Translations under genes and position numbers: made by a program | Notes under the pieces: model-generated | The model's input: only the letters and a program-made list of their open reading frames with translations | Told to the model about the DNA's origin: nothing | Database searches by the model: none | NCBI GenBank assembly: GCA_020434345.1 | Contig: JAGRAZ010000001.1 | Location: 3,763-67,762, forward strand | Direction: 5' to 3' | DNA length: 64,000 bases | Source: Bdellovibrionales bacterium | Lineage (GTDB): Bacteria; Bdellovibrionota_G; JALEGL01; JAGRMV01 | Shown here: one piece after another, positions 3,141 to 60,762 of the stretch | Layout: each line of letters opens with the position of its first letter | Position numbering within the stretch: the stretch's first letter is position 1

Positions 3141-3222
3141 ATTCGCGGGCCAACATACTTGATTTATTGCGTTTAGACAAACTCTTGCAGGGATTATTGA
3201 ACACTTGTAAGTAGGTTATTTT

Positions 3223-11040: not shown

Positions 11041-11550
11041 TTAGAAGTGAATACCTGCTGAGAAAAATACGTTCCAGAAATCTGTGGAAGTTGCTCCATC
11101 AAAATTAATATAATTATATACACCTTCAACACCCAACGTAATCACTGGAAGCACGATGTTTAAACCCAAGCCAGTATAAAAGCCGGGTGCACTTTGATCT
11201 GAGATTGGAGAATTGCTTGAGTAAAACAGCCAAGAATACGCAAATCCTGCTCGAACAAAAGGATGTAGAAGATTTGAATCAGGCGTAATTAAAGAATTAA
11301 AATCATACACTGGACCAAGATTGGCTTGTAGGTAAAACGAATTCACTACATCATTGTCATAGAAGCCAATTGCTTCAGCTTCTACTGCCAACCCAGATAC
11401 AGGAAGGGGTAAGCCAAACACCACACCGCCACCAATATTGGTAGATCCGTCCGACGTAAATGTTCCCACTTTTAAGCCTACATAGGCATTTGAAGAGGTT
11501 GAAAAAGCCAAAGCCGCCAAAAATACTAAAATCGAATATTGTAATCTCAT
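11041..11550 (-). CDS. Outer-membrane beta-barrel protein (OmpW/OmpA-like porin family).
   Basis: Internal start MRLQYSILVFLAALAFSTSSNA is a signal peptide. It has an alternating amphipathic pattern and a C-terminal ...SAGIHF with terminal Phe, typical of OMP barrels. Confidence 0.55.
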   Translation of the reverse strand: MRLQYSILVFLAALAFSTSSNAYVGLKVGTFTSDGSTNIGGGVVFGLPLPVSGLAVEAEAIGFYDNDVVNSFYLQANLGPVYDFNSLITPDSNLLHPFVRAGFAYSWLFYSSNSPISDQSAPGFYTGLGLNIVLPVITLGVEGVYNYINFDGATSTDFWNVFFSAGIHF

Positions 11551-12711: not shown

Positions 12712-13344
12712 TTACACTTCAGAACTTGGGCAAAGTGTGTGCAGTTCACATGCTCCGCAAAGTGGCTTTCGTGCTTTGCACGTAGCCCTTCCATGCATGA
12801 TCATACGATGAGAAATGACCGTCCAATCTTTTTGAGACACAAGCTTCATCAAATCTTTTTCTACTTTTACCGGATCTTTTTCTTTGGTGAAACCAAACCT
12901 TCGAGACAATCGCCCCACATGGGTATCCACAACCACACCAACATTTTTTCCAAACGCATTGCCCAGTACCACATTGGCAGTTTTCCTACCTACGCCTCGA
13001 AGTTTAATCAATTCATCCATCGATGCTGGTACCTTGCCACCATGTTTGGTGACAATATCTTCAGATGAACTTTTAAGTGATTTGGCTTTGGATCGAAAAA
13101 AACCTGTAGACTGAATAAGCTTTTCAATGGAAGACAAAGGGGCTTTGCTCATACTTGCTGCATCGGGATATTTTTGAAAAAGTGATGGCGTTACCTTATT
13201 GACACGTTCATCTGTACACTGGGCAGATAAAATGGTTGCTACCAAAAGCTGAAATGGATCATCATGGACAAGCGCGCAATTTGGATCTGGAAAAAGTTTC
13301 GCAAGTTTTTGCAAAATCTTCTTACTTCTTTCATCTTTTTTCAA
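12712..13344 (-). CDS. nth: Endonuclease III.
   Basis: LVATILSAQCTDERVNKVTPSLF is the HhH-GPD region. The C-terminal CKARKPLCGACELHTLC is the 4Fe-4S cluster loop. Confidence 0.9.
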   Translation of the reverse strand: MKKDERSKKILQKLAKLFPDPNCALVHDDPFQLLVATILSAQCTDERVNKVTPSLFQKYPDAASMSKAPLSSIEKLIQSTGFFRSKAKSLKSSSEDIVTKHGGKVPASMDELIKLRGVGRKTANVVLGNAFGKNVGVVVDTHVGRLSRRFGFTKEKDPVKVEKDLMKLVSQKDWTVISHRMIMHGRATCKARKPLCGACELHTLCPSSEV

Positions 13345-15055
13345 AAAACGCCTCTATTTCCTTGGCTGTTCTTGTATTAAGTACGTTTTGTTTTTCAAGC
13401 CCACCCTTTCGTGCCATGTTCACACCAAAGATTACATCTTCCAACCCCTCAATACTATGCGCATCTGGATTGATGGAAACGAGGCCTTTTTTCCGTTTAA
13501 GATACGGCAAAAGTCGCCAGTCTACATCCAGACGATATGGACTTGCATTAAGCTCAACAACCTTTCCAAGTTTTGCTGCATGTTCAATGATCTCATTCAT
13601 ATCAATCTCAAACGCATCCCTTCCTAGCAAAATTCGTCCCGTTGGGTGACCCAACATGGTCGTTGCGGGGTTCGAAAGTGCCTTTTTACAGCGCGTTGTC
13701 ATTTGCTGTTTACTCATACGAAAAGAAGAATGCACAGAAGCAATCACAAAATCAAAGTCCTTTAAAACTTTTTTGGGATAGTCCAACTCACCATCTTTTA
13801 AAATATCAGACTCGATGCCTTTAAAAATACGAATTGTAGGAAACTTTTTCTGAAGCTGATCGATCTCTTTATGTTGCTTGATAATATCTTTGGCGTTTAA
13901 GCCATGTGCATAAAACGCACTCTGACTATGGTCAGTAATACCAATATAATCATAACCCTTATCCACACAAGCCTGAACCATCTCAATCAAAGAATTTTTC
14001 CCATCGCTGTAGGTCGTATGCATATGAAAAATACCTTTGATATCTTTTTCTGAAATGAGATTGGGTAATTTTCCTTTTTCAGCAAGCTCTATTTCTTGCG
14101 TTCCTTCACGCATTTCCGGCTCAACGAATGCAAGATCAAGCGTTTGAAACAAATCTTTTTCTGATTGGATTTTTAATTTTCTTTCTCCCTTAAAAACACC
14201 CCACTCACTCACCTTTAAGCCCATTTTCTTGGCCCGAGAACGAATCAACGTATTATGCTCTTTGCTTCCAGTAAAATGATGAAGTGCGCTTGCAAACTCG
14301 TCGGGCTTTACAATTCGCAAATCGATCTGCAAACCTGTGTCCAAACGAACACTGATCTTAGTATCTCCTGCTGCAATGACTTCCTCTACATTTTTCATTG
14401 TTGAAAACTTTTTTCCAACACTTTCTGGAAGGATAGTAGAACACAAAATATCCGCATCTTTCACAATTTCTTTTTTTCGCCGAAGACTTCCTGCGATCGA
14501 GATTTCACTGACTTCCTTCATTGCAGACAAAATTTTTATAACACCTTCTACTTGTGCAAGTACATCCACATAACGAAAACGCCCTACATTCTTTTTGAGA
14601 TACTCGATGCCTTGAAGGATTTTGTCTTGTGTCTTCTCTCCAAAACCCTTGAGCTTTAAAAGACGATTTTCCTGACAAGCGTATTCAAGCGAAGTCAAAG
14701 AATCAATTCCCAATTCATTGTAAAGAACTTTAATTTTCTTAGGCCCCAATTGTGGAACCTTAAAAAGGTCAAACAATGTTTCTGGAAATTTCTTTTTCAG
14801 TGCATCAAAAACATCTAACTTTCCAGATTCACAATATGTCGTGATATCACTCGCAATCCCCTTACCTATGCCTTGAAGTTCTGTTAAACGATTTTCCCTT
14901 AAAAGTGTTTCAAAATCGTCGGACATTGTTTCTAGTGTTCGTGCAGCGTTTGAAAATGCACGAATCTTAAAAACATTTTCATCATTTAGTTCTAGCAATA
15001 TGGCCATCTCATGAAGAAGATCAATGACATCTTCTTTAGATTTTTTATTTTTCAT
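13331..15055 (-). CDS. polX: DNA polymerase/3'-5' exonuclease PolX (Pol beta-like N-terminus plus PHP domain).
   Basis: The N-terminal region (MKNKKSKEDVIDLLHEMAILLELNDENVFKIRAF...) resembles the PolX N-terminus. The C-terminal half has a histidine/aspartate-rich segment (GIFHMHTTYSDGK...GYDYIGITDHS) consistent with a PHP domain. Length 574 aa. Confidence 0.85.
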   Translation of the reverse strand: MKNKKSKEDVIDLLHEMAILLELNDENVFKIRAFSNAARTLETMSDDFETLLRENRLTELQGIGKGIASDITTYCESGKLDVFDALKKKFPETLFDLFKVPQLGPKKIKVLYNELGIDSLTSLEYACQENRLLKLKGFGEKTQDKILQGIEYLKKNVGRFRYVDVLAQVEGVIKILSAMKEVSEISIAGSLRRKKEIVKDADILCSTILPESVGKKFSTMKNVEEVIAAGDTKISVRLDTGLQIDLRIVKPDEFASALHHFTGSKEHNTLIRSRAKKMGLKVSEWGVFKGERKLKIQSEKDLFQTLDLAFVEPEMREGTQEIELAEKGKLPNLISEKDIKGIFHMHTTYSDGKNSLIEMVQACVDKGYDYIGITDHSQSAFYAHGLNAKDIIKQHKEIDQLQKKFPTIRIFKGIESDILKDGELDYPKKVLKDFDFVIASVHSSFRMSKQQMTTRCKKALSNPATTMLGHPTGRILLGRDAFEIDMNEIIEHAAKLGKVVELNASPYRLDVDWRLLPYLKRKKGLVSINPDAHSIEGLEDVIFGVNMARKGGLEKQNVLNTRTAKEIEAFFEKR

Positions 15056-23851: not shown

Positions 23852-23900
23852 ATCTTAAGATACTTTGGGAAGAATGCCGATGTTCTCAATCTGCACAAGC
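23852..23900. repeat. Direct repeat, copy A: a remnant copy of the last ~14 codons plus stop of divIVA, lying after the stop of the cargo gene and upstream of folD.
   Basis: By hand count, 43/49 nt are identical to 24948..24996. On the minus strand it encodes LVQIENIGILPKVS*, against LVQIENVGILPKVS* at the real divIVA end. Most of the differences are synonymous. Confidence 0.8.
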
Positions 23901-23911
23901 ACATGATTTGT

Positions 23912-24790
23912 TTAGTCAATTGTTTTTGGATCGTGAGGATTCACTGCAGGTAAAATATCTGCAATTTCTAAAAGTGTTGCTAGCGCATAAACTCTTTTAG
24001 CATTTTTGAATGCATTTCGACTCGAAGTATTTTTTGTATCAACATCAAAAATATTTTTTCCATCGCCCTTGAGGACATTGATACCATTGTTTTGCAATAG
24101 TCTTTTTCCCCCGCCACTTCCAGCGTTATAAAATATATAAGACCATGCAGCAATCAGTGGATTATCATTGGGCAATTGAATATGTAATGCTTTGGCTGCT
24201 TCAACAAACTTGTCATGCGAGTATTGATAACGAGCGGCAAAAAACTCTGTATAAGCATCAAGACTTTCAAATGCACCAAGTACATATTCATCATTTGCTT
24301 CGTTTCTAACCTTGATGGGAGAACCATCTTGCGTAAGCTCTGGTTGTAAACCAGTATAATCTTGTCGCAAATACCCTTCTCTTTTTAATTTATCTTGAAT
24401 GAAAATTCCATCATCCATACCGTCGCTGGAAGTAGAAAGATCATCAAATAGAGGATCATATCCATACTCACAAATAGCATCAGCACAAAGTAATATATTG
24501 ATCATTGACTCTTGCATGATTGAAGCAACAAAACCTGAAGGAGAAAGACCTGCTGTAACATCATTTGCATGATCAAGTGAGTCCAAAATATCAAAAGAGT
24601 TTTTTGACAGCCACCCCATGATTCCAGGCACCCTCATACCAGCAACCAACCCAGCTTTTCTTTTTAGTTGGTCGTATAGCTCAGTATCATCAACAAGTTT
24701 CTGCGCTTGCGACTCTGCTTTTTTTACGTCAAAAGCATGCGTTGAAAATGGAAGTAAAAAAAATAAAAAGGCATATAGATAGATTTTCAT
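23912..24790 (-). CDS. Secreted hypothetical protein (292 aa). It is the cargo gene of a small islet inserted between divIVA and folD.
   Basis: Signal peptide MKIYLYAFLFFLLPFSTHA. No family recognised. A strong AAGGAG SD lies close to the ATG. The gene is bracketed by the 49-bp direct repeat. Confidence 0.5.
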   Translation of the reverse strand: MKIYLYAFLFFLLPFSTHAFDVKKAESQAQKLVDDTELYDQLKRKAGLVAGMRVPGIMGWLSKNSFDILDSLDHANDVTAGLSPSGFVASIMQESMINILLCADAICEYGYDPLFDDLSTSSDGMDDGIFIQDKLKREGYLRQDYTGLQPELTQDGSPIKVRNEANDEYVLGAFESLDAYTEFFAARYQYSHDKFVEAAKALHIQLPNDNPLIAAWSYIFYNAGSGGGKRLLQNNGINVLKGDGKNIFDVDTKNTSSRNAFKNAKRVYALATLLEIADILPAVNPHDPKTID

Positions 24791-24947
24791 ACTCCTTACT
24801 TAGCAACGAACATGCCAAAGTATTTTCACATTTTTACTTTCATATCAATAACTTAAATACACCTATTACTTCTTGTATAGGGACAAGGGACACTTATAAC
24901 CAAGCAAAGTTGACCAGAAATATAAGTGTTTGGTGACTGTGTAGACT

Positions 24948-24996
24948 TCTTACGAAACCTTAGGAAGGATGCCGACGTTCTCAATCTGCACAAGCA
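24948..24996. repeat. Direct repeat, copy B: the functional 3' end of divIVA.
   Basis: Partner of 23852..23900. It contains the divIVA stop (TAA, minus strand, 24950-24952). Confidence 0.8.
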
Positions 24997-30013: not shown

Positions 30014-30523
30014 TTAGGGCCGCATTGTCATGCGCTCAAACAGAACATCAAGAAGCGCATCCTTTTGACCATCCGTTAATAGATCCAATCTTGGGTCACC
30101 CATGCGAACTTTTGTAAGCACGACATCTTTTTTCATAGGCGCACTTAATCGACCCAAAGGTACAGCATCTACAAGTCCAAAATCTTTCAATCGAAACTGT
30201 TGGTGGTGCCCCTCTTCTTTCATTTGAGAAGTATAGGTTTTAGACATTAACAAAAAATGTGCATGCAAATCACTTGTAGGAAGCCCCAGATAGGATTGAA
30301 AATTTTCACAGTCCTGACAAACTTCTTTGTAGTGTTGATAAGCAAAAACAAATTTGACGGGTTCATTTCTGACATTGTGTTCTTGGTTTGTTCTAACCCA
30401 AATTTGTACCGGGCCTTGGTTTTCAAACTCGCCAACAATTTGTAACACAACTGAAACACGATCTTCTGCAACAGCACATGCAAAAACAATACAACCTAAT
30501 AAAAAAATAGAAATGAATTTCAT
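30014..30523 (-). CDS. Small secreted hypothetical protein.
   Basis: MKFISIFLLGCIVFACAVAEDR is a signal peptide. First of three tandem small secreted genes. Confidence 0.4.
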   Translation of the reverse strand: MKFISIFLLGCIVFACAVAEDRVSVVLQIVGEFENQGPVQIWVRTNQEHNVRNEPVKFVFAYQHYKEVCQDCENFQSYLGLPTSDLHAHFLLMSKTYTSQMKEEGHHQQFRLKDFGLVDAVPLGRLSAPMKKDVVLTKVRMGDPRLDLLTDGQKDALLDVLFERMTMRP

Positions 30524-30543
30524 ATACAACCTTTTTTACACTT

Positions 30544-31017
30544 TTATTTTACTTCATCTACGGCAATGAATGCTTCAATTGATTCTTCTAAAAATTCCAT
30601 TTTCATACTCAACTCATCAACATCAACTTTGCGAACTTTACCGTTCCATGATCGTGTAAAGCCTTTGGTTGAATATCGATAGGCTTTTTGTATACACGCA
30701 TCCGCTGTCATATTGGTAACTGTGTAAGTATATCGCGCATTTGATTCTGTATCCTCATACACACCGTCTGCCGACAAAGTACATTTTACGCTTTGGCCTT
30801 TGTAGCTTAAATCAAATCTTAGCAGTGAATCAAGATACATCGCGGTAAGACATGCATTGTATGCCTCATGTGTATTTGAAAAAAGTCTTCTGTCATGAAG
30901 AAATTCTAACTTTGTTTCTCCATCAATTTTCACAAAACCTTTACATTGCCAAAGTCGATTTTCCGCAAATACATTTGAAGATACAACCAACACCAATCCA
31001 ACAATCCATAATTTCAT
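30544..31017 (-). CDS. Small secreted hypothetical protein.
   Basis: MKLWIVGLVLVVSSNVFAEN is a signal peptide. Confidence 0.4.
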   Translation of the reverse strand: MKLWIVGLVLVVSSNVFAENRLWQCKGFVKIDGETKLEFLHDRRLFSNTHEAYNACLTAMYLDSLLRFDLSYKGQSVKCTLSADGVYEDTESNARYTYTVTNMTADACIQKAYRYSTKGFTRSWNGKVRKVDVDELSMKMEFLEESIEAFIAVDEVK

Positions 31018-31041
31018 ATACAACTCCTGCCTTAATACATT

Positions 31042-31383
31042 TTAAAAATGTGCAAAAAAGCCCCAATCACAAGACTCTACATACTCAATGAAAAAACGTT
31101 TGGTAACCGTGTGTACAACACCAAGTCTTCCCATTTTTTCTTTGATATCCACATACTCTTTGTTTTCGTAAGAGTCACAAAATGCATTGCACTGTGCTTC
31201 CGTAAGACCATTTTTACTAAAATTACGCTCATTATGATCATCATGTCGATCTACAATGGTGAGCCCGTTGGCATTGGGACCATAATGACCGACAAGTTCA
31301 ACCTGACACAATCCTGTCTCTTCCGCAAAACCGAGATTCACAAAACACAGTATTGTTACAACAATCCACCCTAATCTTTTCAT
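31042..31383 (-). CDS. Small secreted Cys-containing hypothetical protein.
   Basis: MKRLGWIVVTILCFVNLGFAEE is a signal peptide. Six Cys. Confidence 0.4.
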   Translation of the reverse strand: MKRLGWIVVTILCFVNLGFAEETGLCQVELVGHYGPNANGLTIVDRHDDHNERNFSKNGLTEAQCNAFCDSYENKEYVDIKEKMGRLGVVHTVTKRFFIEYVESCDWGFFAHF

Positions 31384-36903: not shown

Positions 36904-38355
36904 TTATTTTGGAATTTTTATTTTTTTACTTTGATTTTCGAGAAACAAATACGTTATAATAATGCTTCCTAAAACAAGCCATATCACTTCATTCGGCACC
37001 CAACCCATTTCAATTGGCTTATACCCCTCTCTTAAAAACGTATCGGAAAAATCAATAAAAACAGAGGTAACTTCGGTTTGCACCCTTGCTGCCACAGTTA
37101 TAACCATTGGTATGGAAACACATAAGGCTAAAAGCAAAATAAAAGAAGTCATAATCATCACCATGCCAAAGGTAGGAACAATAAATATATTGTACACAAA
37201 TGATAGTGGATTCCATTGATCAAAAAATAAAATTAAAAAAGGCGAAGTCCATAGATATGCCGCCATGCAAACAAGAAAATGTATCCACACTTTCTGTTTC
37301 CATAAATGTGTTTTTATATTTTCTCTTTGATACAAAAGTAGCGTCCATATTATGCCTACAACAGCTGAAAAGCTCAGAACAGACGATATAGACAAAATCT
37401 CAAATGGAAACAGAATCATTGTTGCCCACAATGTTACAATAAGAACAAAAAGAAAACTTCTTCGAAAGCCGATAGATGTTTGAAAAAGATAGATTGTAAT
37501 AAATGCCCACGCACGAAATGTTGGAACCGTAACTTCAAGCCATTTCCATAGAAATAGCGTTACAAAAAGCCAAGAACAAAAAGAGACAAGTATCTGAAAA
37601 TTTCGTTGATGATGTATCCAACAACAAAAGGCAAAAGAAAAAATAAACATCGCAAATCCATAAAGAAGCGCCACATGAAAACCAGAAAAAACAAACAAAT
37701 GAATGATCCCAACATCTCTCCATATATTCTTGATCGAAGAATCAACAAACCTTGATTTACCCTCTACAAGCGCTTGGAATATTTGATAGGACGGTACGGG
37801 TAAAAGTATTTTCGCCCTTTGCATAATTTTTTGTTTGTACGTTGGCGCATGCTTGGAAACATAACTCCACTTTTGATCACTACGAATCACCGTTGTCCAC
37901 GCATTGAGCTTATCATCGAATTTGATTTTGCTTTGAAAGCGAATAATATCGCCCTCTTTTGGATAGACAAACGTATACATTCGGGCCGTGACTCTCTGAG
38001 AGAGACTTTCCCAGAGATTACCATTACGCACGCCTTCAACACACAAATCTAAACTATACATTTGATCTGTTGGAATAACTGCCGAACAAACCCTTGCCTC
38101 ATATAGATTCTGCTTATTTTCAATGGCGATCACGGAAGGATTATAGACAAATCGACTTACCCCATGATGAAACATAAAACTTACGGCCACCACTGCGCCC
38201 ATAAGACCGATCCAACGATTTTTTTCACTCGTGCTCAAAAGCAAACAGACAAGACAACTTACAAAAAGGATTCCCCCGATCCACCACGCAATATGCGCGT
38301 AAGAAAATGCAATTCTACCTAGAGCGAATGCCAGAAAAAGATGAAGAAGTCGCAC
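36904..38355 (-). CDS. comEC: ComEC/Rec2-family competence membrane protein (DUF4131 plus competence domain; no beta-lactamase domain).
   Basis: Polytopic membrane protein. GDIIRFQSKIKFDD is the OB-like N-terminal part. IGIIHLFVFSGFHVALLYGF resembles the competence-domain LLAISGLHV motif. Confidence 0.55.
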   Translation of the reverse strand: MRLLHLFLAFALGRIAFSYAHIAWWIGGILFVSCLVCLLLSTSEKNRWIGLMGAVVAVSFMFHHGVSRFVYNPSVIAIENKQNLYEARVCSAVIPTDQMYSLDLCVEGVRNGNLWESLSQRVTARMYTFVYPKEGDIIRFQSKIKFDDKLNAWTTVIRSDQKWSYVSKHAPTYKQKIMQRAKILLPVPSYQIFQALVEGKSRFVDSSIKNIWRDVGIIHLFVFSGFHVALLYGFAMFIFSFAFCCWIHHQRNFQILVSFCSWLFVTLFLWKWLEVTVPTFRAWAFITIYLFQTSIGFRRSFLFVLIVTLWATMILFPFEILSISSVLSFSAVVGIIWTLLLYQRENIKTHLWKQKVWIHFLVCMAAYLWTSPFLILFFDQWNPLSFVYNIFIVPTFGMVMIMTSFILLLALCVSIPMVITVAARVQTEVTSVFIDFSDTFLREGYKPIEMGWVPNEVIWLVLGSIIITYLFLENQSKKIKIPK

Positions 38356-45291: not shown

Positions 45292-45798
45292 CTACTCGTT
45301 GCAGGTGACGCTTGTGATGCCTTCACAACATCCAAACGATGTTGTACCACCACAAAGTGGATTTCCACCCCCTGCTGTCCCAAAACACAGGGTAATTGGC
45401 TGCGATTGAAGATCTACAAAAATTGGACAATCACTTGTACCAATATGTGTTTGATTGCCATTGATATCAAATGCCACCATACGCAAGCGATATTTTACAC
45501 CTTGACTCAACAAAGATGGATCAATGGTAAAACTATCCTGTAACGGATCCATACCCAACCCAGATAAACTTGGACTTTCAATTGTTGTACCCGTTGTATC
45601 ATTGATTCCATTTGGACTTGAACTTAATGGATCAAGCAAAAAATATACGCCTCGAGATTGACCTGCTTCAAAAGCAGAAGAAATATCAAGCATAGGATTG
45701 GTGTTTTGATTGGCCGCAATGACAATATCAACTTCAAATAACGGCGAAGTTGAGCAGGCCATCATCCAAACAAGTGTTCCTAGTAAGATTTTTTTCAT
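45292..45798 (-). CDS. Cys-rich lipoprotein (third of a tandem trio).
   Basis: MKKILLGTLVWMMACSTS is a lipobox. The start overlaps the upstream stop. Confidence 0.45.
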   Translation of the reverse strand: MKKILLGTLVWMMACSTSPLFEVDIVIAANQNTNPMLDISSAFEAGQSRGVYFLLDPLSSSPNGINDTTGTTIESPSLSGLGMDPLQDSFTIDPSLLSQGVKYRLRMVAFDINGNQTHIGTSDCPIFVDLQSQPITLCFGTAGGGNPLCGGTTSFGCCEGITSVTCNE

Positions 45799-46265
45799 GA
45801 ACAGTTTCCTGAAGCAATCGTCACAGTAACAGCATTGGCACCTGATTCATTATTAAACTCTTGTTTTCCACAATACAAAATAGTTCCTGAAGCGTCTCGA
45901 AACTCTGCTCTTACCTCAAAACGAAAATCAAGTGGGACTTGGCCAAGCGTTATCTGTCCTGAATCTCCAACATCAAAACCACATCCAGCAGGCTTTGCAT
46001 TGGAACAACTTGCGACATTTCCACAGGCGTTGGGATAGACAAACAAGTCAGGCATACCATTGTTATCTTCATCTAAGCCTTGCCCACCTACAGGTACATT
46101 GCGTACGCAGTACACAATGTCGTTAACACTCGCATCAGAAAACGCATTGGATCCAGTATAAAAAATTTCCAATGTTTGGTCTGTAGACCCACAGGATTGC
46201 ATCAGCACGAAAACAACCAAAGCCAGACTAAATCTTACGGACATATGTTTGGTAATCCTGTACAT
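45795..46265 (-). CDS. Cys-rich lipoprotein (middle of the trio; paralogue of the first gene at 46235..46681).
   Basis: Lipobox LMQSCGST. YPNACGNVASCSNAKPAGCGFDVGDS aligns with YPSNCLSADGNNACIEENCGFGRDES of the first gene at 46235..46681. Confidence 0.45.
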   Translation of the reverse strand: MYRITKHMSVRFSLALVVFVLMQSCGSTDQTLEIFYTGSNAFSDASVNDIVYCVRNVPVGGQGLDEDNNGMPDLFVYPNACGNVASCSNAKPAGCGFDVGDSGQITLGQVPLDFRFEVRAEFRDASGTILYCGKQEFNNESGANAVTVTIASGNCS

Positions 46266-46681
46266 GTATTGCCTTGACTCATTGTAATGGTTGCGGATTG
46301 TCCATCCGAGTTAGAAACTTGGGCTGACCCTGCTGCCACCTCATTACTTGCCTCATCCAAAGCGCAAGCTGTAACCGTAAGTGTTGCATCTTTATCAAAA
46401 TCATCAAAATTGATGCCAGGGTCAAATGTACTTTCATCACGACCAAAACCACAATTTTCCTCTATACAAGCGTTATTACCATCTGCAGACAAACAATTCG
46501 ATGGATACAAAACACTGGTTTGACCAGAGGTTACAATGAAAATAAAATTCTCAATGGAGTCTTGCTCTCCTGAACTCAACGCATCCACATTCAACGTAGC
46601 TGTTATGGTTCCGCTAGAGCCGCTGCCACACGAAATACTAAAAAAAACAAAAAGCATCATGATCATTTGAAAAAAACGCAT
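46235..46681 (-). CDS. Cys-rich lipoprotein (first of the trio).
   Basis: Internal start MRFFQMIMMLFVFFSISCGSG is a lipobox. Both this protein and the middle one end in a GNxC motif. Confidence 0.45.
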   Translation of the reverse strand: MRFFQMIMMLFVFFSISCGSGSSGTITATLNVDALSSGEQDSIENFIFIVTSGQTSVLYPSNCLSADGNNACIEENCGFGRDESTFDPGINFDDFDKDATLTVTACALDEASNEVAAGSAQVSNSDGQSATITMSQGNTCTGLPNICP

Positions 46682-46725
46682 AAATTCATTGTACCTCACC
46701 TTGATTTTCATTTACAACAATTTCG

Positions 46726-54242: not shown

Positions 54243-54779
54243 ATGAAGATTGGTTTTTTTGGCGGTACATTCAACCCTCCTCATTTGGGGCACCTGCTTG
54301 CTGCAACATATGCGCTAAAAACCTTTGATTTAGATCAGGTATGGTTTGCGCCCGTTTTTCATCACCCTTTTGGCAAGCATAGCATTCCTTTTGAACATCG
54401 TCTGGCCATGTGCAAGCTGTTAATTGCCGAGCTCTCTCCTCCATTTCTTGTGACGGATATTGAAAAAGAGATAGCGCATGAAGGCAAAACGTATTTTACA
54501 TTAAAAGAGCTTCAAAAACGCTTTCCAGAAAACACATTCAGCTTGGTGATTGGATCGGACCTACAGGAACAAATTAAAAAATGGAGCCACTATAACGAAT
54601 TGCAAGAAGAGTTTACCATTCACTTTGTACCGCGCGGTGAAAAGGACAATCCAACTTCTATTCCCAACATTTCAAGTACGAACGTACGTGCTGATGCATA
54701 CGATACTGAAATTATCAAAAATGTTGTAACACCTGAAATCCATGCATACATGGAAAAGAATAAATTTTACGACAAATAA
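54243..54779 (+). CDS. nadD: Nicotinate-nucleotide adenylyltransferase.
   Basis: MKIGFFGGTFNPPHLGHL is the (H/T)xGH motif. Confidence 0.85.
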   Translation: MKIGFFGGTFNPPHLGHLLAATYALKTFDLDQVWFAPVFHHPFGKHSIPFEHRLAMCKLLIAELSPPFLVTDIEKEIAHEGKTYFTLKELQKRFPENTFSLVIGSDLQEQIKKWSHYNELQEEFTIHFVPRGEKDNPTSIPNISSTNVRADAYDTEIIKNVVTPEIHAYMEKNKFYDK

Positions 54780-54780
54780 A

Positions 54781-54816
54781 AAAGGCCGAAAACAATGTCT
54801 TGTTTCCGACCTTTTT
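54781..54816. terminator. Bidirectional rho-independent terminator between the convergent nadD and RRM genes.
   Basis: ggccgaaaacaa-tgtc-ttgtttccgacc is an imperfect hairpin, flanked by an A-run on one side and a T-run on the other. Confidence 0.5.
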
Positions 54817-54838
54817 CTAAACTTTTTTTTATAAAAAG

Positions 54839-55180
54839 TTAGTAACGGTTTCCGCGACCACCGCCACTGCGGTTGCCACCAAAGCCACCACGACCACCAC
54901 GGTTACCACCGCCGAAGCCGCCAGAGCGAGGCTCTTGAGGACGTGCTTCGTTAACTTTTAATGCACGACCTTCAACTTCTTGGCCATTGAATTTTTCAAT
55001 TGCTGTTTTTGCTTCATCATCTGAAGACATTTCAACAAATCCAAAACCTTTGCTACGACCGCTGTCACGATCTGTAATGATTTTTGCAGATGTAACTGTA
55101 CCAGCTTCAGCAAATAAGTTTTGTAATGATGTTTCATCCATCGAAAACGATAGATTACCTACGTAAAGTTTATTACCCAT
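54839..55180 (-). CDS. RRM-domain RNA-binding protein with a Gly/Arg-rich tail.
   Basis: KLYVGNLSF is RNP2. KGFGFVEM is RNP1. C-terminal GGFGGGNRGGRGGFGGNRSGGGRGNRY. An AGGAGG SD is present. Confidence 0.8.
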   Translation of the reverse strand: MGNKLYVGNLSFSMDETSLQNLFAEAGTVTSAKIITDRDSGRSKGFGFVEMSSDDEAKTAIEKFNGQEVEGRALKVNEARPQEPRSGGFGGGNRGGRGGFGGNRSGGGRGNRY

Positions 55181-55383
55181 GATACCTCCTAATTTGACCA
55201 GGGTGTCGTTTTAGAGGACATGAGCACCATGCTCGAAAGACTCATAAAGGACGACTAACTAACTTTCCAGTTTCCGCTTATATCACAACACAAATTCATT
55301 GTCGATGGGACACAAAAACCCCACTTTTAAACTGGCGCTTCCAGCCTATTTTGCTACAAAAGGGGCTTTGAAAGGACATCCCC

Positions 55384-55908
55384 ATGAATACAACCGTACT
55401 CTTTGAAACCCTTCAACAATTTAGCCGTATGCTAACCCATATGTCTGCTTTCATTGAGAAGGCCAACAGCCACATGCAAAAGTTCAAAACCACCAATATC
55501 GACCAAGCCCTTCAATTGCGTCTGGTTGTGGACCAATTCCCTCTTTCAAAACAAATTCAGTCCAGCTGCGATATTGCCAAGCTCTTTGCAGCCCGTTTGA
55601 CTGGCAAAGAAGCCCCAGTGTATCAAGATACAGAAACCACCTATGGACAAATCCAAGAGCGCATTCAGAACACTTTGACCTATCTTAAAACAATTGAAGA
55701 AAAGGACTTCACAGGCTGGGAAGAAAAAACCATCAGCTTTCCATGGATGCCCGGACAGTATCTAAAAGCCAAAGACTATATTGAAAAGCACGCCATCCCG
55801 AATTTCTACTTTCACTTGACCACTGCATATGCAATTCTTCGCGCCAACGGTGTTGAATTGGGCAAAGGCGATTTTCTAGGAGCACTTCCCTTTATTAAGA
55901 ATAACTAA
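55384..55908 (+). CDS. DUF1993-family protein.
   Basis: 174 aa. ...ISFPWMPGQYLKAKDYIEKHAIPNFYFHLTTAYAILRANGVELGKGDFLG matches DUF1993. Confidence 0.65.
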   Translation: MNTTVLFETLQQFSRMLTHMSAFIEKANSHMQKFKTTNIDQALQLRLVVDQFPLSKQIQSSCDIAKLFAARLTGKEAPVYQDTETTYGQIQERIQNTLTYLKTIEEKDFTGWEEKTISFPWMPGQYLKAKDYIEKHAIPNFYFHLTTAYAILRANGVELGKGDFLGALPFIKNN

Positions 55909-55915
55909 AAGCTTT

Positions 55916-56110
55916 TTACTTTTTAGAGAGTTCGCAGGTGTTAATGCCCAACAGTTGGTACGGGGGACACCAACCTATAAGACCAGTTGCAAGGGGCACG
56001 ATACCTAATAAAAACCACATGTTTTTAGGACCAACAAAGGCTAGGCTAATCAACACCAAACCAACACCTACACGAACAGCTCTTTCGATTGGATGAATAT
56101 TTTTTTTCCT
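55916..56110 (-). CDS. DUF2892 (YgaP-like) small membrane protein. No in-frame ATG is present, so this is either a rare or alternative start codon or a 5'-disrupted pseudogene.
   Basis: Hand translation gives ...KKNIHPIERAVRVGVGLVLISLAFVGPKNMWFLLGIVPLATGLIGWCPPYQLLGINTCELSKK*, a close match to the DUF2892 consensus (..DR.iR...G......G...W..LiG..Pl.TG..G.CP.Y.llGinTC). Confidence 0.4.
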   Translation of the reverse strand, partial: RKKNIHPIERAVRVGVGLVLISLAFVGPKNMWFLLGIVPLATGLIGWCPPYQLLGINTCELSKK

Positions 56111-56186
56111 AATGCTTCTCCTTCTATATGAAACGTAAGACTTTCAACAAAAAATGTAAACTTTTTACCACGTTCTATGCAGATCA

Positions 56187-56227
56187 CACTATTACATCTT
56201 GATGCAATTGGAGTACAGACCTAGCAG
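56187..56227. repeat. Direct repeat, copy C1: a remnant copy of the marC 3' end, downstream of the multicopper-oxidase gene.
   Basis: By hand count, 32/41 nt are identical to 58531..58571. On the minus strand it encodes LLGLYSNCIKM* followed by TAG, against VLGLYSNYIKI* TAG at the real marC end. Confidence 0.75.
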
Positions 56228-56246
56228 GGCGCTGCGAATCTTGAAT

Positions 56247-58490
56247 CTAATAGGTTAATGTCATACCTAACCCCCACCCCATATCGCTATCATAATGCGT
56301 TGAAGCAGAAATATATTTGGAAAGAATGTAACGAAACCCAGCCATATATTCCTTGTCAGTATTAAGCATTAGATTCATACGAAGTCTTTTTGAGATGGAT
56401 ATATCTTCTCGTCCCAATTGAAATCGAAGTTTCGCATCTGAATCCAAACGTAAATCTGCCACAAACAGCATGGGCAAAATATACTGTAAACCCATTACGG
56501 CTGTTTTTCGATTGTCTTTGTTACTCTTTTGACCAAACCATGTTTGGCTTTCATCTCCAAAAATATTACCCGGCCCTCCAGGCTTCTTATAATGCAAATC
56601 AAAACCAACATACGGATACCACCACTGCATTTTTCCCAAATAACGACCTAATGTCGTTTCACTCTCATAACCATGCATATCGTGAAATCCCAAATGCCAA
56701 AGCGTACCCATCTTCCAACGAGTATTTGCAAGCATCGCTTCCCCATCACTACCGTTGCTTTCAATTCCGATCGTAGCCATAGCATGAAACATTTGATCTT
56801 CTTTATATAGTTTTTTGAGTGCTGATTCAGGGTTGGGTAAATCTGGATTTGGCGGTGAATCTTCATAGTGAAAGATCCGACCCATGCCACTCATCATGTG
56901 ATACAAAATATGACAATGAAAAAACCAATCGCCTTCAGCATTGGCTGCAAACTCAATAACATCTGTCTCCATGGGCATAATATCAATCACGTTTTTCATA
57001 GGAGAAAAATCTCCATGCTTATTGATCAAACGAAAATCATGACCGTGGAGATGCATAGGATGTCGCATCATTGAATTGTTATAAATTGTTATACGGAGGT
57101 TTTCGCCCTTTTTGATCAGAATTTTTTCGCTTTCAGAAATAGTTCGATTGTTCAGTGTCCAAACATACCGGTTCATATTTCCAGTTAGCTCAAAATGTAG
57201 TTCCCTTACCGAACCAGTTGGCAATACCGTGCTCTCAGGTGAACGCAACATGCCATAATTCAATGTAACAATTTTACCTTTCTCAATTTCAGGATACATC
57301 ACACGATTCATATCCATTTGTTGATTTTGCATTTTCATTTCATGCATTGGTTTCATATTGCCTGATACATCCATCATACCGTTCATCATTTTCATGCCTT
57401 CAAAATATTTAAGTCGTGGAAGATTTTGCGCAAAAACCTTTTGTCCAATCCCCAACCAAAGCGAAGCTGACTTGGTTCGATCCTCAGGCGTGATCAAAAA
57501 TTCAAAACTCTTATTCTCAGGAATTTCTACAATGACATCATAAGTTTCTGAAACGGTTATCAGTAATCGATCCACATCAACTGGAACTACATCATTCCCA
57601 TCAGAAGCAACAACAGTGATTTTTCCACCTGCGTATGTGAGCCAAAAGTTATCTGAAGCGCCCGCATTGATTAAGCGTAGTCTGACGCGATCCCCTGATT
57701 TGAAATCATGATATTGAACTTGATTTTTTCCATTGATGAGAAACGTGTCGTAATACACGTCACTAACATCCATGGCGGACATACGCTTCCATTCATTGAT
57801 TATTTTGGTCCAAAAATGACCATGTCGAATCGCTTCCCAATAACTTTGAGTACTACCTTTCTGAATACCAAACCAATCTGAAGCACTATGCAATCTCCGA
57901 TCAACCTCCTGTGGCTTAACATCCGTCCACTCACTTATTACAACTGGAATAGTAGGGATTGCAGGCTCATCACGCTTAAGTAAAACCATTGCTCCATACA
58001 TACCAATCTGTTCCTGAAGCCTAGAATGACTGTGATACCAATGCGTTCCATGTTGAACGATTGGGAAACGATAGACATGCTCAGAATGTGGAGGAATTGG
58101 TAATTGAGTTAAATTTGGTACGCCATCATAGCGATTTGGTAAAAACAAACCATGCCAATGCAAAGAAGTGTCTTCATCCAAATCATTAAAAACATGGATC
58201 TCAGCCATGTCTCCTTCTGTAAAAGTCAGTGTCGGCATAGGCAATTGGCCATTGACGCCAATAGCTTTTTTCGTTTTGCCAGAAAAGTTCACATTCATTG
58301 GATGAATATGTAAATCGTATCGTACTGTCTTGGGAGAGTTTATATTTGCAACTGTCTTTTGGTCCTCTTGAACTTCTTTGCCAGATTGATTTTGGTGGAT
58401 TGACTGCTGATAATCCAAATACTCTTGGGCACTTATGTTTTGGAAAACAAAGAAAATAATCAAAAAGAATATTCTTATAGCCAACACCAT
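56247..58490 (-). CDS. copA: Multicopper oxidase (CopA/CueO-like) fused to a C-terminal CopB-like outer-membrane domain (the last ~205 aa, encoded at 56247..56865).
   Basis: Signal peptide. Copper-ligand motifs HWHGLFLP, HWYHSH, HPMHLHGH and HCHILYHMMSGMG. A Met-rich segment MKMMNGMMDVSGNMKPMHEMKM. The C-terminal ...LQYILPMLFVADLRLDSDAKLRFQLGREDISISKRLRMNLMLNT...YDSDMGWGLGMTLTY resembles CopB/PcoB. Confidence 0.8.
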   Translation of the reverse strand: MVLAIRIFFLIIFFVFQNISAQEYLDYQQSIHQNQSGKEVQEDQKTVANINSPKTVRYDLHIHPMNVNFSGKTKKAIGVNGQLPMPTLTFTEGDMAEIHVFNDLDEDTSLHWHGLFLPNRYDGVPNLTQLPIPPHSEHVYRFPIVQHGTHWYHSHSRLQEQIGMYGAMVLLKRDEPAIPTIPVVISEWTDVKPQEVDRRLHSASDWFGIQKGSTQSYWEAIRHGHFWTKIINEWKRMSAMDVSDVYYDTFLINGKNQVQYHDFKSGDRVRLRLINAGASDNFWLTYAGGKITVVASDGNDVVPVDVDRLLITVSETYDVIVEIPENKSFEFLITPEDRTKSASLWLGIGQKVFAQNLPRLKYFEGMKMMNGMMDVSGNMKPMHEMKMQNQQMDMNRVMYPEIEKGKIVTLNYGMLRSPESTVLPTGSVRELHFELTGNMNRYVWTLNNRTISESEKILIKKGENLRITIYNNSMMRHPMHLHGHDFRLINKHGDFSPMKNVIDIMPMETDVIEFAANAEGDWFFHCHILYHMMSGMGRIFHYEDSPPNPDLPNPESALKKLYKEDQMFHAMATIGIESNGSDGEAMLANTRWKMGTLWHLGFHDMHGYESETTLGRYLGKMQWWYPYVGFDLHYKKPGGPGNIFGDESQTWFGQKSNKDNRKTAVMGLQYILPMLFVADLRLDSDAKLRFQLGREDISISKRLRMNLMLNTDKEYMAGFRYILSKYISASTHYDSDMGWGLGMTLTY

Positions 58491-58530
58491 CTCTTACCTA
58501 TAAGCAATTTTATGGTTTGTAAAAATTAAA

Positions 58531-58571
58531 CTCTATTATATCTTTATATAGTTGGAATACAGACCTAGTAC
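58531..58571. repeat. Direct repeat, copy C2: the functional 3' end of marC.
   Basis: Partner of 56187..56227. It contains the marC stop (TAA, minus strand, 58536-58538) followed by TAG. Confidence 0.75.
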
Positions 58572-59180
58572 ACCAGTAATAAACATTTGTGCTGCTAAGG
58601 AACCTACAACCAGCCCCATCAAACGACTAAACACACGTATACCATTTTCGCCAAGTCTCTCTTTGATGCGTGGCATGTTACGTAGAATCAAATAATTGCT
58701 CACCGAGCATAAAATAATAGCGACAGTTACAGACAAATACGATTGCCAGCTCTTATGAACAAGACTAAGGTTAATAAGCGTGGTTGTAAGCCCCGGGCCA
58801 GCGATAATGGGAATAGAAAGCGGCACGATACTGATATCACTTTGCTGCCTTGCAGCCTCGTGCTCCGTAGATTGGTGGTTTGTTTTTTTGCCTTTACCTT
58901 GAACCATATCAAAGCCCATGATCAAAAGAATAATTCCACCAAAAATTCGCAGCCCATCTGGCTTGATTCCAAAAAAATTAAAAATATATGTACCACTTAA
59001 AAACAATATCAACATCGTAATGAATACTGTTTTCGTACATCTTCTTGCGATGGTTTCAATTTCTTGCTTTGTGACAGATTCGCTGACAAGCGAAAGCATA
59101 ATGACCCCTGCAGACAAGGTATTCATGATGGTAAAAATCGAAATGGTGTTACCAAGGATGCTTTTAAGTAGTTCAATCAT
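58536..59180 (-). CDS. marC: MarC-family (UPF0056) integral membrane protein.
   Basis: Six predicted TM segments. The N-terminal region resembles the MarC family. Confidence 0.7.
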   Translation of the reverse strand: MIELLKSILGNTISIFTIMNTLSAGVIMLSLVSESVTKQEIETIARRCTKTVFITMLILFLSGTYIFNFFGIKPDGLRIFGGIILLIMGFDMVQGKGKKTNHQSTEHEAARQQSDISIVPLSIPIIAGPGLTTTLINLSLVHKSWQSYLSVTVAIILCSVSNYLILRNMPRIKERLGENGIRVFSRLMGLVVGSLAAQMFITGVLGLYSNYIKI

Positions 59181-59219
59181 GGTTTAGTTTTCAAGTATAA
59201 AATATATCAGAGTTGTAAT

Positions 59220-60296
59220 CTATGCAACTACTTGATCAATCCAACCGCCGCCCACGACCGTGTCGCCTTGATAAATTACGGCAGCTTGTCCGGGTGTGAT
59301 GGATTTTTGTGGTTCAACAAAGCTAAGTGTAACTGTCTCTCCTACTTTTTTGACTACTGCTTTTGCAGGTTCAAAGCGTGAACGAATTTTAACATCATAG
59401 GTTTGATCAATTTGCACAGGTTTGTCAGTATACCGAAGCTCTTTAATCACAAATTCTTTTTTCATGAGCGATGCTTCGTCACCAACAGTAATATTGCCCG
59501 TTGTTTTATCGATGTTGGAAACATACATAGGAAGGGTTGTTGGAATTTCAATACCTCGACGCTGCCCAATGGTGTACTCATGAATACCCTCATGTTTACC
59601 TAAAACTTTGCCTGTTTCATCTACCAAGTTTCCCTTGATAATATTTTTTTCATCGATGCGATCACGAACAAACTTTTTATAATCTGTAGGAACAAAACAG
59701 ATTTCCTGTGAATCTTTCTTTTGGGACGTAAGAATACCTGCCTTTTCGCCAATGGCGCGTACTTCAGGCTTGGTCATGTCGCCAAGGGGAAACATAAGTT
59801 TGTCAAGTTGCTCTTGGTTCATCCCAAAAAGGAAATAAGATTGGTCTTTTTGCAAATCAACCGCTCTTTTAAGGTGAATGATTCCTTGATCATCTTTGAT
59901 CAAACGAGCGTAGTGACCTGTGGCCAAAAAGTCAGCACCCAATTCTTCTGCACGTTGAAGTAACAAATCAAATTTAATATCGATATTACATCGAACACAT
60001 GGATTGGGTGTTTCACCTACGCGATAACTTTCAATAAACTGATCGACAACAGCCCCTTCAAATTTTTGCTCAAAATTAAATACGTAATAAGGAATTTGCA
60101 GTTGATCAGCTACACGACGTGCATCATATAAATCATCAGGCGTACAACATCCGTGTGTTGTATCAGGATCATACGACCATAGACGCATTGAAATACCCAC
60201 AACATCGTACCCTTGTTCTTTTAATAGGTACGCTGCTACAGAGGAATCCACCCCTCCGCTCATGGCAATTACGACTCTTTTATTTTTTGTCTCCAT
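59220..60296 (-). CDS. mnmA: tRNA-specific 2-thiouridylase.
   Basis: VVIAMSGGVDSSVAAYLL is the PP-loop SGGxDS motif. Length 358 aa. Confidence 0.9.
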   Translation of the reverse strand: METKNKRVVIAMSGGVDSSVAAYLLKEQGYDVVGISMRLWSYDPDTTHGCCTPDDLYDARRVADQLQIPYYVFNFEQKFEGAVVDQFIESYRVGETPNPCVRCNIDIKFDLLLQRAEELGADFLATGHYARLIKDDQGIIHLKRAVDLQKDQSYFLFGMNQEQLDKLMFPLGDMTKPEVRAIGEKAGILTSQKKDSQEICFVPTDYKKFVRDRIDEKNIIKGNLVDETGKVLGKHEGIHEYTIGQRRGIEIPTTLPMYVSNIDKTTGNITVGDEASLMKKEFVIKELRYTDKPVQIDQTYDVKIRSRFEPAKAVVKKVGETVTLSFVEPQKSITPGQAAVIYQGDTVVGGGWIDQVVA

Positions 60297-60762
60297 TGGG
60301 GTTCCTTACTACTACAAAAGGCTGCAACTGATCAAGTAGGCGTTGTGAGATGCCTCGAATTTCTGCAAGTTGGGCAAGATTTTCAAATCCACCCGTCCTT
60401 TTCCTCATTTCTAGGATCTTTTTTGCCCTAGATGGCCCAATGCCGGGTAGAGCCATAAGCGCATGACGACTTGCCGTATTTAGGTCGATTCTGCCTCCTT
60501 GCAACAAGTATCTAGAGGTCAGAATTTCTTGATATTCAGGCAGGTTACCCACACGTCTTTGGCCATGCATCATGGAACATAGGGTTTTTACGCTCAAAAT
60601 AATGCATAGCATTGCAATAAAACCAACTTCCCACTTTTTTTGATTATCTAATGATTTTAACAAGTTATTAACCTTCGATGTGCTTGACAGCCCCTCTTTT
60701 TCGATGGTAGCTGTAAAAGAAAAGTGGCTTTGCCATTTTTTCTCCTGTGTGCCAGTGACCAT
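60280..60762 (-). CDS. comEA: ComEA-family helix-hairpin-helix DNA-binding protein.
   Basis: IDLNTASRHALMALPGIGPSRAKKILEMRKRTGGFENLAQLAEIRGIS is the HhH motif. N-terminal TM segment. The exact start is uncertain. Confidence 0.6.
   Translation of the reverse strand: MVTGTQEKKWQSHFSFTATIEKEGLSSTSKVNNLLKSLDNQKKWEVGFIAMLCIILSVKTLCSMMHGQRRVGNLPEYQEILTSRYLLQGGRIDLNTASRHALMALPGIGPSRAKKILEMRKRTGGFENLAQLAEIRGISQRLLDQLQPFVVVRNPNGDKK

Follow-up and report, generated by a model that had tools for sequence, protein, structure and literature searches.

Minimal mobile elements of Neisseria and the flexible islands of Alteromonas are regions of replaceable content between conserved flanking genes. They move by double crossover in those flanks, leaving no internal gene-tail duplicates. 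CIMEs (cis-mobilizable elements) are what remains of decayed ICEs or IMEs whose attL and attR persist at a target gene's 3' end (PMC5704250). Experimentally, single crossover of a recircularised molecule carrying a partial gene end has yielded the order gene, insert, partial gene-end duplicate (PMC3240628). Homology-facilitated illegitimate recombination (HFIR) has likewise been documented in competent bacteria, with an insertion accompanied by a deletion as its usual product (PMC3240628).

We analysed a 64,000-nucleotide stretch of Bdellovibrionales DNA (hereafter the window), in which a multicopper oxidase gene lies between two copies of the 3' end of marC. The islet neatly exemplifies an event of a known kind and does not constitute a new system.

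Duplicated gene tails at marC and divIVA

The functional tail of marC, comprising 11 codons, the stop codons TAA TAG and 2 further nucleotides (copy A; 58531..58571, minus strand), recurs on the same strand at 56187..56227 as a displaced, non-functional remnant (copy B). Aligned without gaps and in register, 32 of the 41 bases are identical, and the two copies are 2344 nt apart, start to start. A first-pass annotation had proposed the duplication from a count of 32/41, which we confirmed. When both strands of the window (128,000 positions) are searched, the next-best ungapped match to the marC end reaches 24/41, and self-blastn of the whole window gives the pair an E value of 7e-3. A repeat finder run on the window returned the same pair as an 82% direct repeat (56186-56224 and 58530-58568). 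Read on the minus strand, copy A encodes VLGLYSNYIKI and copy B LLGLYSNCIKM, each followed by TAA-TAG, just as the annotation had translated them.

The similarity has sharp limits on both sides, with no significant alignment upstream of the marC repeat or more than 2 nt past the stop codons, and no further repeats were found in the block from marC to the RRM gene or in the corresponding loci of relatives. At its 5' edge, copy A carries an 11-nt core, CTAGGTCTGTA (58558-58568), that is identical in copy B (56214-56224). A 19-nt spacer (56228..56246, minus strand) separates the oxidase stop codon from the remnant. The junction between remnant and oxidase was recovered in independent assemblies, at 100% identity in L029/L043 and at 1504/1505 positions in L044, and the junction between marC and oxidase was recovered in L033 at 98.6%. 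With three independent assemblies in agreement, the sequence is not an assembly artefact.

Among the ORFs scanned, only one other gene shows such a duplication. When the tails of 66 ORFs were each scanned against their own 6 kb downstream, divIVA (35/42) and marC (32/42) were the sole outliers, the background maximum being 26 downstream and 28 upstream. These two tails also form the two best direct repeats of the window in self-blastn. The divIVA islet (23853..24996, minus strand; 88% identity over 49 nt, E 6e-10) consists of the divIVA tail (24948-24996), a 159-nt leader, one ORF for a secreted protein of 292 aa (23912-24790), a 10-nt spacer and the tail remnant (23853-23901). Its repeat has an identical core of 20 nt at the 5' edge, and its cargo has no Pfam or NCBIfam match. 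None of the loci compared from relatives includes divIVA, folD or yggS. The two islets thus share, as had been claimed, the order gene, repeat, one ORF, repeat on the same strand. In both, the cargo is exactly one ORF with a 3' flank of 10-19 nt, as would be expected of a defined unit more than of a random fragment. Read-through fusion of cargo and remnant was rejected as a general feature, because the remnant is in frame at divIVA and out of frame at marC.

The differences between the copies are those expected of coding sequence. Six of the eight coding differences in the marC repeat fall at third codon positions, and five of the six in the divIVA repeat are synonymous third-position changes. 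Pooled over both islets (11/14), this bias has P = 7e-4 against random placement and P = 0.017 against a model in which the copies are identical at birth and the remnant decays neutrally. Both repeats are free of indels and retain their frames and stop codons. This combination of third-position bias with intact frames and stops implies that the two copies evolved apart, each as coding sequence in its own lineage, before a recent event joined them. The remnants are accordingly true gene tails that stem from diverged alleles and came together fairly recently. Both repeats, moreover, open at the 5' edge with an unbroken run of identity (11 and 20 nt) and continue into a tail diverged by 21-26%, a pattern whose statistical support is weak and partly post hoc. 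In each case the diverged tail ends 2 nt after the stop codon, and similarity is absent past either end.

Beyond the marC remnant lies a YgaP-like/DUF2892 gene (55916..56113, minus strand; PF11127, E 1.1e-20), which the first-pass annotation described as lacking a start codon, perhaps through damage by the insertion. There is indeed no ATG, GTG or TTG at the expected N-terminus, where AGG replaces the initiator ATG of homologues that begin MKKNIH or MKQNIH. Damage by the insertion does not account for this change, since it is an ATG-to-AGG substitution located 74 nt from the remnant junction. An in-frame ATT (56113-56111) occurs 4 nt after a good Shine-Dalgarno sequence, AAGGAG, and the sequence is identical in L044.

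The oxidase cargo and the variable mnmA-nadD slot

The cargo between the marC tails is a single 2.24-kb ORF with minimal flanks (56247..58490, minus strand), whose product comprises a signal peptide, a multicopper oxidase of three domains and, at its C-terminus, a further domain of about 190 aa. The leader that connects the marC stops to the ATG of the oxidase (58491..58530, minus strand) contains no terminator, and co-transcription with marC is therefore likely. Indeed, as the oxidase has neither a terminator of its own nor an obvious promoter, it would probably be read through from marC. All three Pfam multicopper oxidase domains pass, and the HxH motifs are invariant in the alignment. The gene had been annotated as a copA-copB fusion. 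The C-terminal 190 aa have no CopB match among Pfam or PDB sequences and model as a 12-strand outer-membrane barrel, with NanC and KdgM matched slightly better than PcoB. This architecture is the norm for this very large family.

The protein departs from the PcoA/CopA and PcoB/CopB copper-resistance systems in several ways. A single polypeptide contains both parts, the TIGR01480 score of the oxidase does not reach the cutoff (352.7 against 478.95 bits), and the predicted barrel lacks a CopB signature and is at least as near to the NanC/KdgM porins. Moreover, no copCD, copRS or CsoR genes lie beside the oxidase. The protein would provide periplasmic or outer-membrane copper detoxification. Its closest homologues are found in cop clusters with CsoR, P-type ATPase and RND genes or on Bacteroidota plasmids, and marC adjoins none of them at the four oxidase loci. 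The oxidase shows no foreign composition (GC about 0.39, GC3 z 0.1, codon-usage z +0.8), so that either the donor was compositionally similar or the gene has long been in the lineage.

The marC gene itself (58536..59180, minus strand) is intact and codes for a NAAT/MarC family membrane protein. It matches PF01914 (E 8.6e-46) over positions 2-202 of 203, and its TIGR00427 score of 137.7 bits exceeds the cutoff of 99.2. The closest homologues, 70-72% identical, occur in unrelated contexts. To the left lies mnmA (59220..60296, minus strand), whose product is 71-81% identical to MnmA of the syntenic loci L038-L042. To the right, after the DUF2892 gene, come a DUF1993 gene (55384-55908, plus strand) and a gene for an RRM RNA-binding protein (54839-55180, minus strand), both absent from the relatives' slot, and then nadD (54243..54817, plus strand; NadD 45-80% identical in L038-L041), with a bidirectional terminator at 54778-54817. 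Relatives keep the order AK-ComEA-MnmA-slot-NadD-MiaB, with mnmA and nadD as conserved borders, where the slot is empty (L038) or holds an ORF of 207 aa (L039) or an M74 peptidase with a small ORF (L040/41). From these differences we conclude that the block of marC, oxidase, DUF2892, DUF1993 and RRM genes is specific to this lineage and that the islet is nested in a variable slot.

The expectation that the oxidase is not ancestral at this site was borne out by its absence from the locus in three related lineages (four loci). The assumption that marC was the resident target gene did not survive the same comparison, because marC too is absent from the relatives' slot and so is not ancestral here. 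Nor did the predicted empty site, with marC directly followed by the DUF2892 gene, turn up at any of 28 MarC loci from other genomes (GTDB), none of which had neighbour genes of the window. An empty-site search of JGI metagenomes by MnmA had a best match of only 33%, and look-ups of exact proteins returned only contigs of the same species with the site filled.

Within the species, marC has been subject to exchange. All 15 SNPs that distinguish the strain contig L033 from the window fall in one 505-nt stretch of marC, the remaining 562 nt being free of them, a mosaic indicating that the marC locus is recombinationally active through allelic exchange. The window also encodes ComEC and ComEA.

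Origin of the islet

The annotation had found no integrase or transposase with the cargo, and our scan of 20 uncharacterised ORFs of the window agrees, revealing no integrase, transposase or recombinase. Terminal inverted repeats are lacking at the cargo termini. We therefore rejected insertion of a transposon or IS, for which the repeats (41-49 nt and diverged) are also unsuitable. An integron gene cassette was rejected likewise: no integrase was seen, the repeats form no hairpin or attC-like fold (folding z +0.4 to +0.7), and an Rfam scan of 54600-59400 gave no match, only sub-threshold noise in the RRM gene. Neither marC-tail copy contains a terminator, and no carrier of the tail motifs was found among phage or viral contigs.

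The account we favour, tentatively and at a little under even confidence, is that a compact cassette carrying a mimic of the marC tail integrated by single crossover to give an integrase-less, CIME-like islet. One reciprocal crossover of the Campbell type, which we place in the short identity block CTAGGTCTGTA, would have brought a single-ORF oxidase cassette of about 2.3 kb into the 3' end of marC. The incoming DNA would have brought its own diverged marC tail, which now completes marC and keeps the gene intact, while the previous tail would have been pushed downstream of the cargo to become the 41-nt dead copy at 56187-56227. The outcome would be an islet flanked by att-like repeats, without an integrase, and nested between the convergent core genes mnmA and nadD. 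We infer the circular intermediate, the position of the crossover in the core, the parent of each copy and the machinery, which may be RecA acting on short homology or a recombinase encoded elsewhere. This account is favoured because the repeat greatly exceeds chance expectation and, across 66 ORFs, gene tails are duplicated in just one further case. Also in its favour are the coding-type differences, the shared anatomy and single-ORF cargos of the two islets, the experimental product of the same layout (PMC3240628) and the recombinational activity of the locus. The oxidase, in addition, is foreign to the locus, given that the slot is empty or different in relatives and that its homologues reside in cop clusters or on plasmids. 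Against it stand the lack of a recombinase among the scanned ORFs and the use of unrelated sequences by the two islets, which makes one site-specific enzyme unlikely. Nor do 11 and 20 nt of identity exceed what RecA usually needs. The contigs found, all of the same species and with the same arrangement, showed neither an excised circle nor an empty site, and no other cargo. The host-like GC3 and codon usage of the oxidase also weigh against it, as does the weak support for a core followed by a diverged tail.

The chief competitor, possible but rather unlikely in our view, is HFIR during natural transformation. A linear fragment carrying a donor marC and the oxidase would have been anchored by homology in or upstream of marC, and an illegitimate joint would have linked its other end to the resident marC 36 nt short of the stop, so that most of the old gene was replaced and only the tail was left. 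Tails that differ in the manner of coding sequence are consistent with two alleles of separate lineages, the window encodes ComEC, ComEA and a PolX, the SNP mosaic shows allelic exchange at marC, and the process is known in competent bacteria (PMC3240628). However, both islets would need the joint to lie in the final 36-46 nt of the old gene, a coincidence whose probability for randomly placed joints is about 0.01, and both donors would need it no farther than 10-19 nt from the stop codon of the cargo. Among the relatives found there is no parental sequence, donor or recipient, against which to recognise the homologous junction, the illegitimate junction with 3-10 bp of microhomology and the loss of recipient DNA that mark an HFIR product. 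The adjacency of marC and oxidase that such a donor calls for is absent from all 28 MarC and 4 oxidase loci, and the typical result is an insertion plus deletion rather than a short duplication (PMC3240628). Third-position-biased differences would be expected as well if an old tandem or second marC paralogue had been nearly all deleted or overwritten by the oxidase. We consider this improbable, as divIVA would require the same unlikely history, the gap between oxidase stop and remnant is only 19 nt with no marC-like sequence upstream of the remnant, and marC is wholly absent from the locus in relatives.

Duplicative insertion, in which 41-49 nt of target were copied as in a long target-site duplication or staggered-break fill-in and diverged only afterwards, possibly helped by allelic replacement, would explain why direct repeats flank the insert exactly, and allelic replacement inside marC does occur. 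It is nonetheless improbable as well: third-position bias exceeds that of neutral remnant decay (P about 0.02), transposase and terminal inverted repeats are missing, and the two repeats differ in length. To our knowledge, 41-49 nt is far longer than any known target duplication. As for chance similarity, a shared functional motif (terminator, RNA element or attC-like hairpin) or metagenome misassembly, the points in their favour are the AT-richness of the region and the TAATAG with which each copy closes. These ideas are effectively refuted by the match of 32/41 against a background maximum of 24, by the lack of a hairpin, Rfam family or terminator, and by the concordant assemblies.

Comparison with known systems

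The integration by single crossover that we favour for the marC islet admits a bolder extension, which we rate as a long shot: the marC and divIVA islets may represent a class, so far undescribed, of single-gene cassettes without a recombinase. Each would carry a mimic of the last 12-16 codons of a host gene, and crossover in short homologies at gene tails would spread them among related Bdellovibrionales with natural competence. If so, gene tails in general could be portable attachment sites, each restored when a cassette enters. Were gene-tail mimicry a regular route of gene gain in this lineage, single useful genes such as the copper oxidase could enter compact genomes without mobility genes or target damage, and a gene-tail duplicate with synonymous divergence would serve as a signature of such events in metagenome-assembled genomes. 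At present there are two well-documented examples in one 64-kb window, together with a mapped variable mnmA-nadD slot in an uncultured Bdellovibrionales group.

Among known systems, the islets resemble CIMEs in that the direct repeats include the 3' end of the target gene and marC is left full length, its end presumably supplied by the element. They also have no integrase or transfer genes, and accretion at a hot spot is possible. In contrast to CIMEs, they are single-ORF units of 0.9-2.3 kb, their repeats are 78-88% identical with coding-type divergence, and their targets are protein genes (marC and divIVA) of unrelated sequence. They have no known cognate integrase or parent ICE. Like minimal mobile elements and flexible islets, the mnmA-nadD slot varies in content by lineage and has no mobility genes. 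As in HFIR, one-sided homology would place foreign DNA beside a conserved gene in a genome that has competence genes, although HFIR does not predict short, similar-sized tail duplications and single-ORF cargos. Campbell-type insertion-duplication provides the remaining comparison: the duplications made experimentally were identical over 109-950 bp (PMC3240628), whereas those described here are diverged, span 41-49 nt and include only 11-20 nt of perfect identity, but the layout of the product is the same.

A duplicated gene tail beyond a multicopper oxidase gene

On the minus strand, mnmA (59220-60296) is followed by marC (58536-59180), a gene for a 747-aa multicopper oxidase (56247-58490), a displaced copy of the marC tail that we call the remnant (56187-56227), and a YgaP-like/DUF2892 gene (55916-56113). 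Past these lie a DUF1993 gene on the plus strand, a gene for an RRM protein, and then the convergent nadD gene. The first-pass annotation had proposed that the end of marC is duplicated beyond the oxidase gene, and our comparisons agree: without gaps, 32 of 41 positions of the marC end (58531-58571) are identical in the remnant, and the runner-up match to this 41-mer in the window, with both strands searched, reaches 24/41. In a self-comparison of the 64-kb window, the two top direct repeats are the tail pairs of divIVA (88% over 49 nt, E 6e-10) and marC (82% over 39 nt, E 7e-3), which bears out the further proposal of a similarly arranged islet at divIVA (23853-24996, minus strand; tail 24948-24996, remnant 23853-23901). 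When the final 42 nt of each of 66 ORFs were compared with their own 6 kb downstream, divIVA (35/42) and marC (32/42) were the only outliers from a background maximum of 26-28.

Independent assemblies of the same species contain the two junctions of the marC islet as well. From DUF2892 through the remnant to the oxidase 3′ end, one contig (L029/L043) is 100% identical and another (L044) matches at 1504 of 1505 positions; from mnmA through marC to the oxidase 5′ end, a third (L033) is 98.6% identical. The duplication stands confirmed, and an assembly artefact can be rejected.

Damage from the insertion had been suspected in the DUF2892 gene, and this we reject. Homologues start MKKNIH or MKQNIH, and the window gene reads ATT AGG AAA AAA AAT ATT CAT, with AGG at the Met position and an in-frame ATT located 4 nt past an AAGGAG Shine-Dalgarno sequence (region 56096-56125). 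The AGG change, which an independent assembly shares, lies 74 nt away from the remnant. To judge from the sequence, the defect is a point substitution unrelated to the junction, and the gene may be a fresh pseudogene or may use a non-canonical ATT start.

Divergence and anatomy of the tail copies

The marC tail reads, in frame, GTA CTA GGT CTG TAT TCC AAC TAT ATA AAG ATA TAA TAG, and the remnant reads CTG CTA GGT CTG TAC TCC AAT TGC ATC AAG ATG TAA TAG. Third codon positions hold six of the eight coding differences in this pair. The divIVA pair has six differences, five of them synonymous changes at third positions and one V/I. The pooled excess (11/14) has P = 7e-4 against random placement and P = 0.017 against copies identical at birth with neutral decay of the remnant, and neither remnant carries an indel or a lost stop codon. 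This third-position bias, together with the intact frames and stops, indicates that each remnant is a genuine gene tail, that it and its partner were both coding, in different lineages, as they diverged, and that in both islets the diverged copies were joined fairly recently.

Each pair begins at its 5′ edge with an uninterrupted identical block, which is CTAGGTCTGTA (11 nt) at marC and TGCTTGTGCAGATTGAGAAC (20 nt) at divIVA, beyond which the tail is 21-26% diverged and ends 2 nt past the stop. Neither pair shows significant similarity upstream of the block or downstream of this end. No terminal inverted repeats, hairpin potential in the repeats or Rfam element were found, nor any terminator between marC, the oxidase gene and DUF2892.

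Each cargo is a single ORF. The oxidase gene has a leader of ~45 nt and a trailer of 19 nt, and the gene for the 292-aa secreted protein in the divIVA islet has flanks of 159 and 10 nt, respectively. At divIVA (23853-23915), the remnant shares the reading frame of the cargo ORF, with one TAA between them, such that read-through would append TNHVLVQIENIGILPKVS. The marC remnant is not in frame with its cargo, and thus the divIVA arrangement is probably a coincidence.

A lineage-specific block and its cargo

The oxidase had been called a copA-copB fusion. All three Pfam multicopper-oxidase domains are indeed present, but the copB label seems to reflect fold-level resemblance only, and the protein falls short of the cutoff for TIGR01480, the CopA subfamily model. 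It belongs to a very large family, with 65-76% identity across Bdellovibrionales, Bacteroidota, Ignavibacteria and Dependentiae MAGs, and full-length relatives are carried by Bacteroidota plasmids. The closest relatives reside in cop clusters that also encode CsoR-type repressors, P-type ATPase, RND efflux or YHS proteins; unlike these, the window gene stands alone. GC, GC3 and codon usage are host-like, and therefore the donor is compositionally similar or the gene has long been resident in the lineage. At the locus of the closest homologue (L036), a 30-nt direct repeat (5573-5602 and 9027-9056, 28/30, the second copy at the contig end) surrounds a CsoR-oxidase-YHS/MauE module in phage/defence-like surroundings.

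Four syntenic loci, recovered from MnmA homologues at 71-81% identity, all keep the backbone aspartate kinase-ComEA-MnmA-[slot]-NadD (convergent)-MiaB-like-RNase III-Der. The slot is empty in L038 (16 nt, 11045-11059), holds one 207-aa ORF in L039 (9886-10545) and, in L040/L041 (L040 11078-12300), an M74 peptidase together with a 114-aa ORF, and in the window spans 4.4 kb with marC, oxidase, DUF2892, DUF1993 and RRM genes (54780-59219). Because slot content differs among relatives, the whole block, including marC, is lineage-specific, with the marC/oxidase islet nested in a variable slot; marC is not an ancestral resident here. A search for an empty marC-DUF2892 site in relatives found none, and no neighbours of the window marC are present in 28 MarC loci. 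In an 81%-MnmA relative (L042), the sequence formed by the final bases of mnmA with its stop and 8 nt more (GCTAATCTTTTTC, 7179-7191) is found again exactly 130 nt farther downstream, at the end of the contig (7309-7321), which may be another, very short gene-tail duplication.

Besides the 99% identical MarC of the same-species contig (P0001/L033), the nearest relatives are 70-72% identical and occur in three MAGs in three unrelated contexts; the MAG with the empty slot has a 70% MarC elsewhere (L002). The next homologues, at 55-66%, are from Flavobacteriales (Owenweeksia, Cryomorphaceae, Schleiferiaceae), which hints that marC itself was transferred between phyla. The codon-usage fit of marC is the poorest of the block (z -1.8). 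Adjoining a marC homologue in a Bacteroidia MAG (L001) is a 904-aa type II restriction-modification-like gene with 30-67-nt direct repeats (86-96%) around it (1753-1787, 2587-2621, 2642-2708, 3164-3230, 6970-7001).

The 15 SNPs that separate L033 from the window all fall within a 505-nt patch (58599-59103, marC codons 26-194), and none is in the other 562 bases of the alignment (mnmA end, marC ends, oxidase start). By its SNP pattern, this patch looks like a homologous-recombination tract.

Possible routes of insertion

Any explanation must account for juxtaposed tail alleles, for tails that are short and of similar length although the two genes are unrelated, for the identical block at the repeat edge nearest the cargo end, for single-ORF cargos with minimal flanks, and for the absence of mobility genes among the window ORFs scanned. 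A single reciprocal crossover fits all these facts, and we regard it, tentatively, as close to an even prospect. A resident gene tail would recombine with a small circular molecule carrying the cargo and a diverged copy of that tail, restoring an intact gene and pushing the old tail away; the same repeats could drive excision, closing the life cycle. Experiments with recircularised DNA that carries part of a gene's end document the same single-crossover outcome (PMC3240628). The weak points of the model are that no recombinase was found in the scan of window ORFs and that an identity of 11-20 nt is borderline for RecA; moreover, two unrelated targets argue against one site-specific enzyme.

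The main rival, rather unlikely in our judgment, couples one-sided homologous with illegitimate recombination during transformation; the apparent recombination tract in marC speaks for it and the window encodes ComEC (36904-38355), ComEA (60280-60762) and PolX (13331-15055; a pol beta-like plus PHP polymerase), DNA-uptake and end-processing functions that would suit such acquisition. However, this route needs a double coincidence: both illegitimate joints would have to lie ≤36-46 nt from the old stop codon, and both donor ends within 10-19 nt of the cargo stop. Less likely are an old tandem paralogue, a long target duplication that later diverged, and chance, a shared motif or misassembly.

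Taken together, these observations support part of the original interpretation, namely a small insertion bracketed by a duplicated gene tail, with a twin at divIVA and free of mobility genes: the islet had been described as lacking an integrase or transposase, and no mobility genes were found among 20 uncharacterised window ORFs scanned. Elsewhere in the window, three small genes with lipoprotein/signal-peptide-like N-termini stand in tandem in each of two places (45292-46711 and 30014-31383), and these sets may be paralogue arrays. The main value of the islet is a clean sequence signature that could be looked for genome-wide. Cis-mobilizable elements (CIMEs) are integrase-less elements that retain attL and attR, which take in the target gene's end (PMC5704250), and the marC islet shares this structure, with repeats that include the target gene's end and no integrase. 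We conclude that the islet is a variant of known phenomena, namely CIME-like islets and insertion-duplication, and not a new system.
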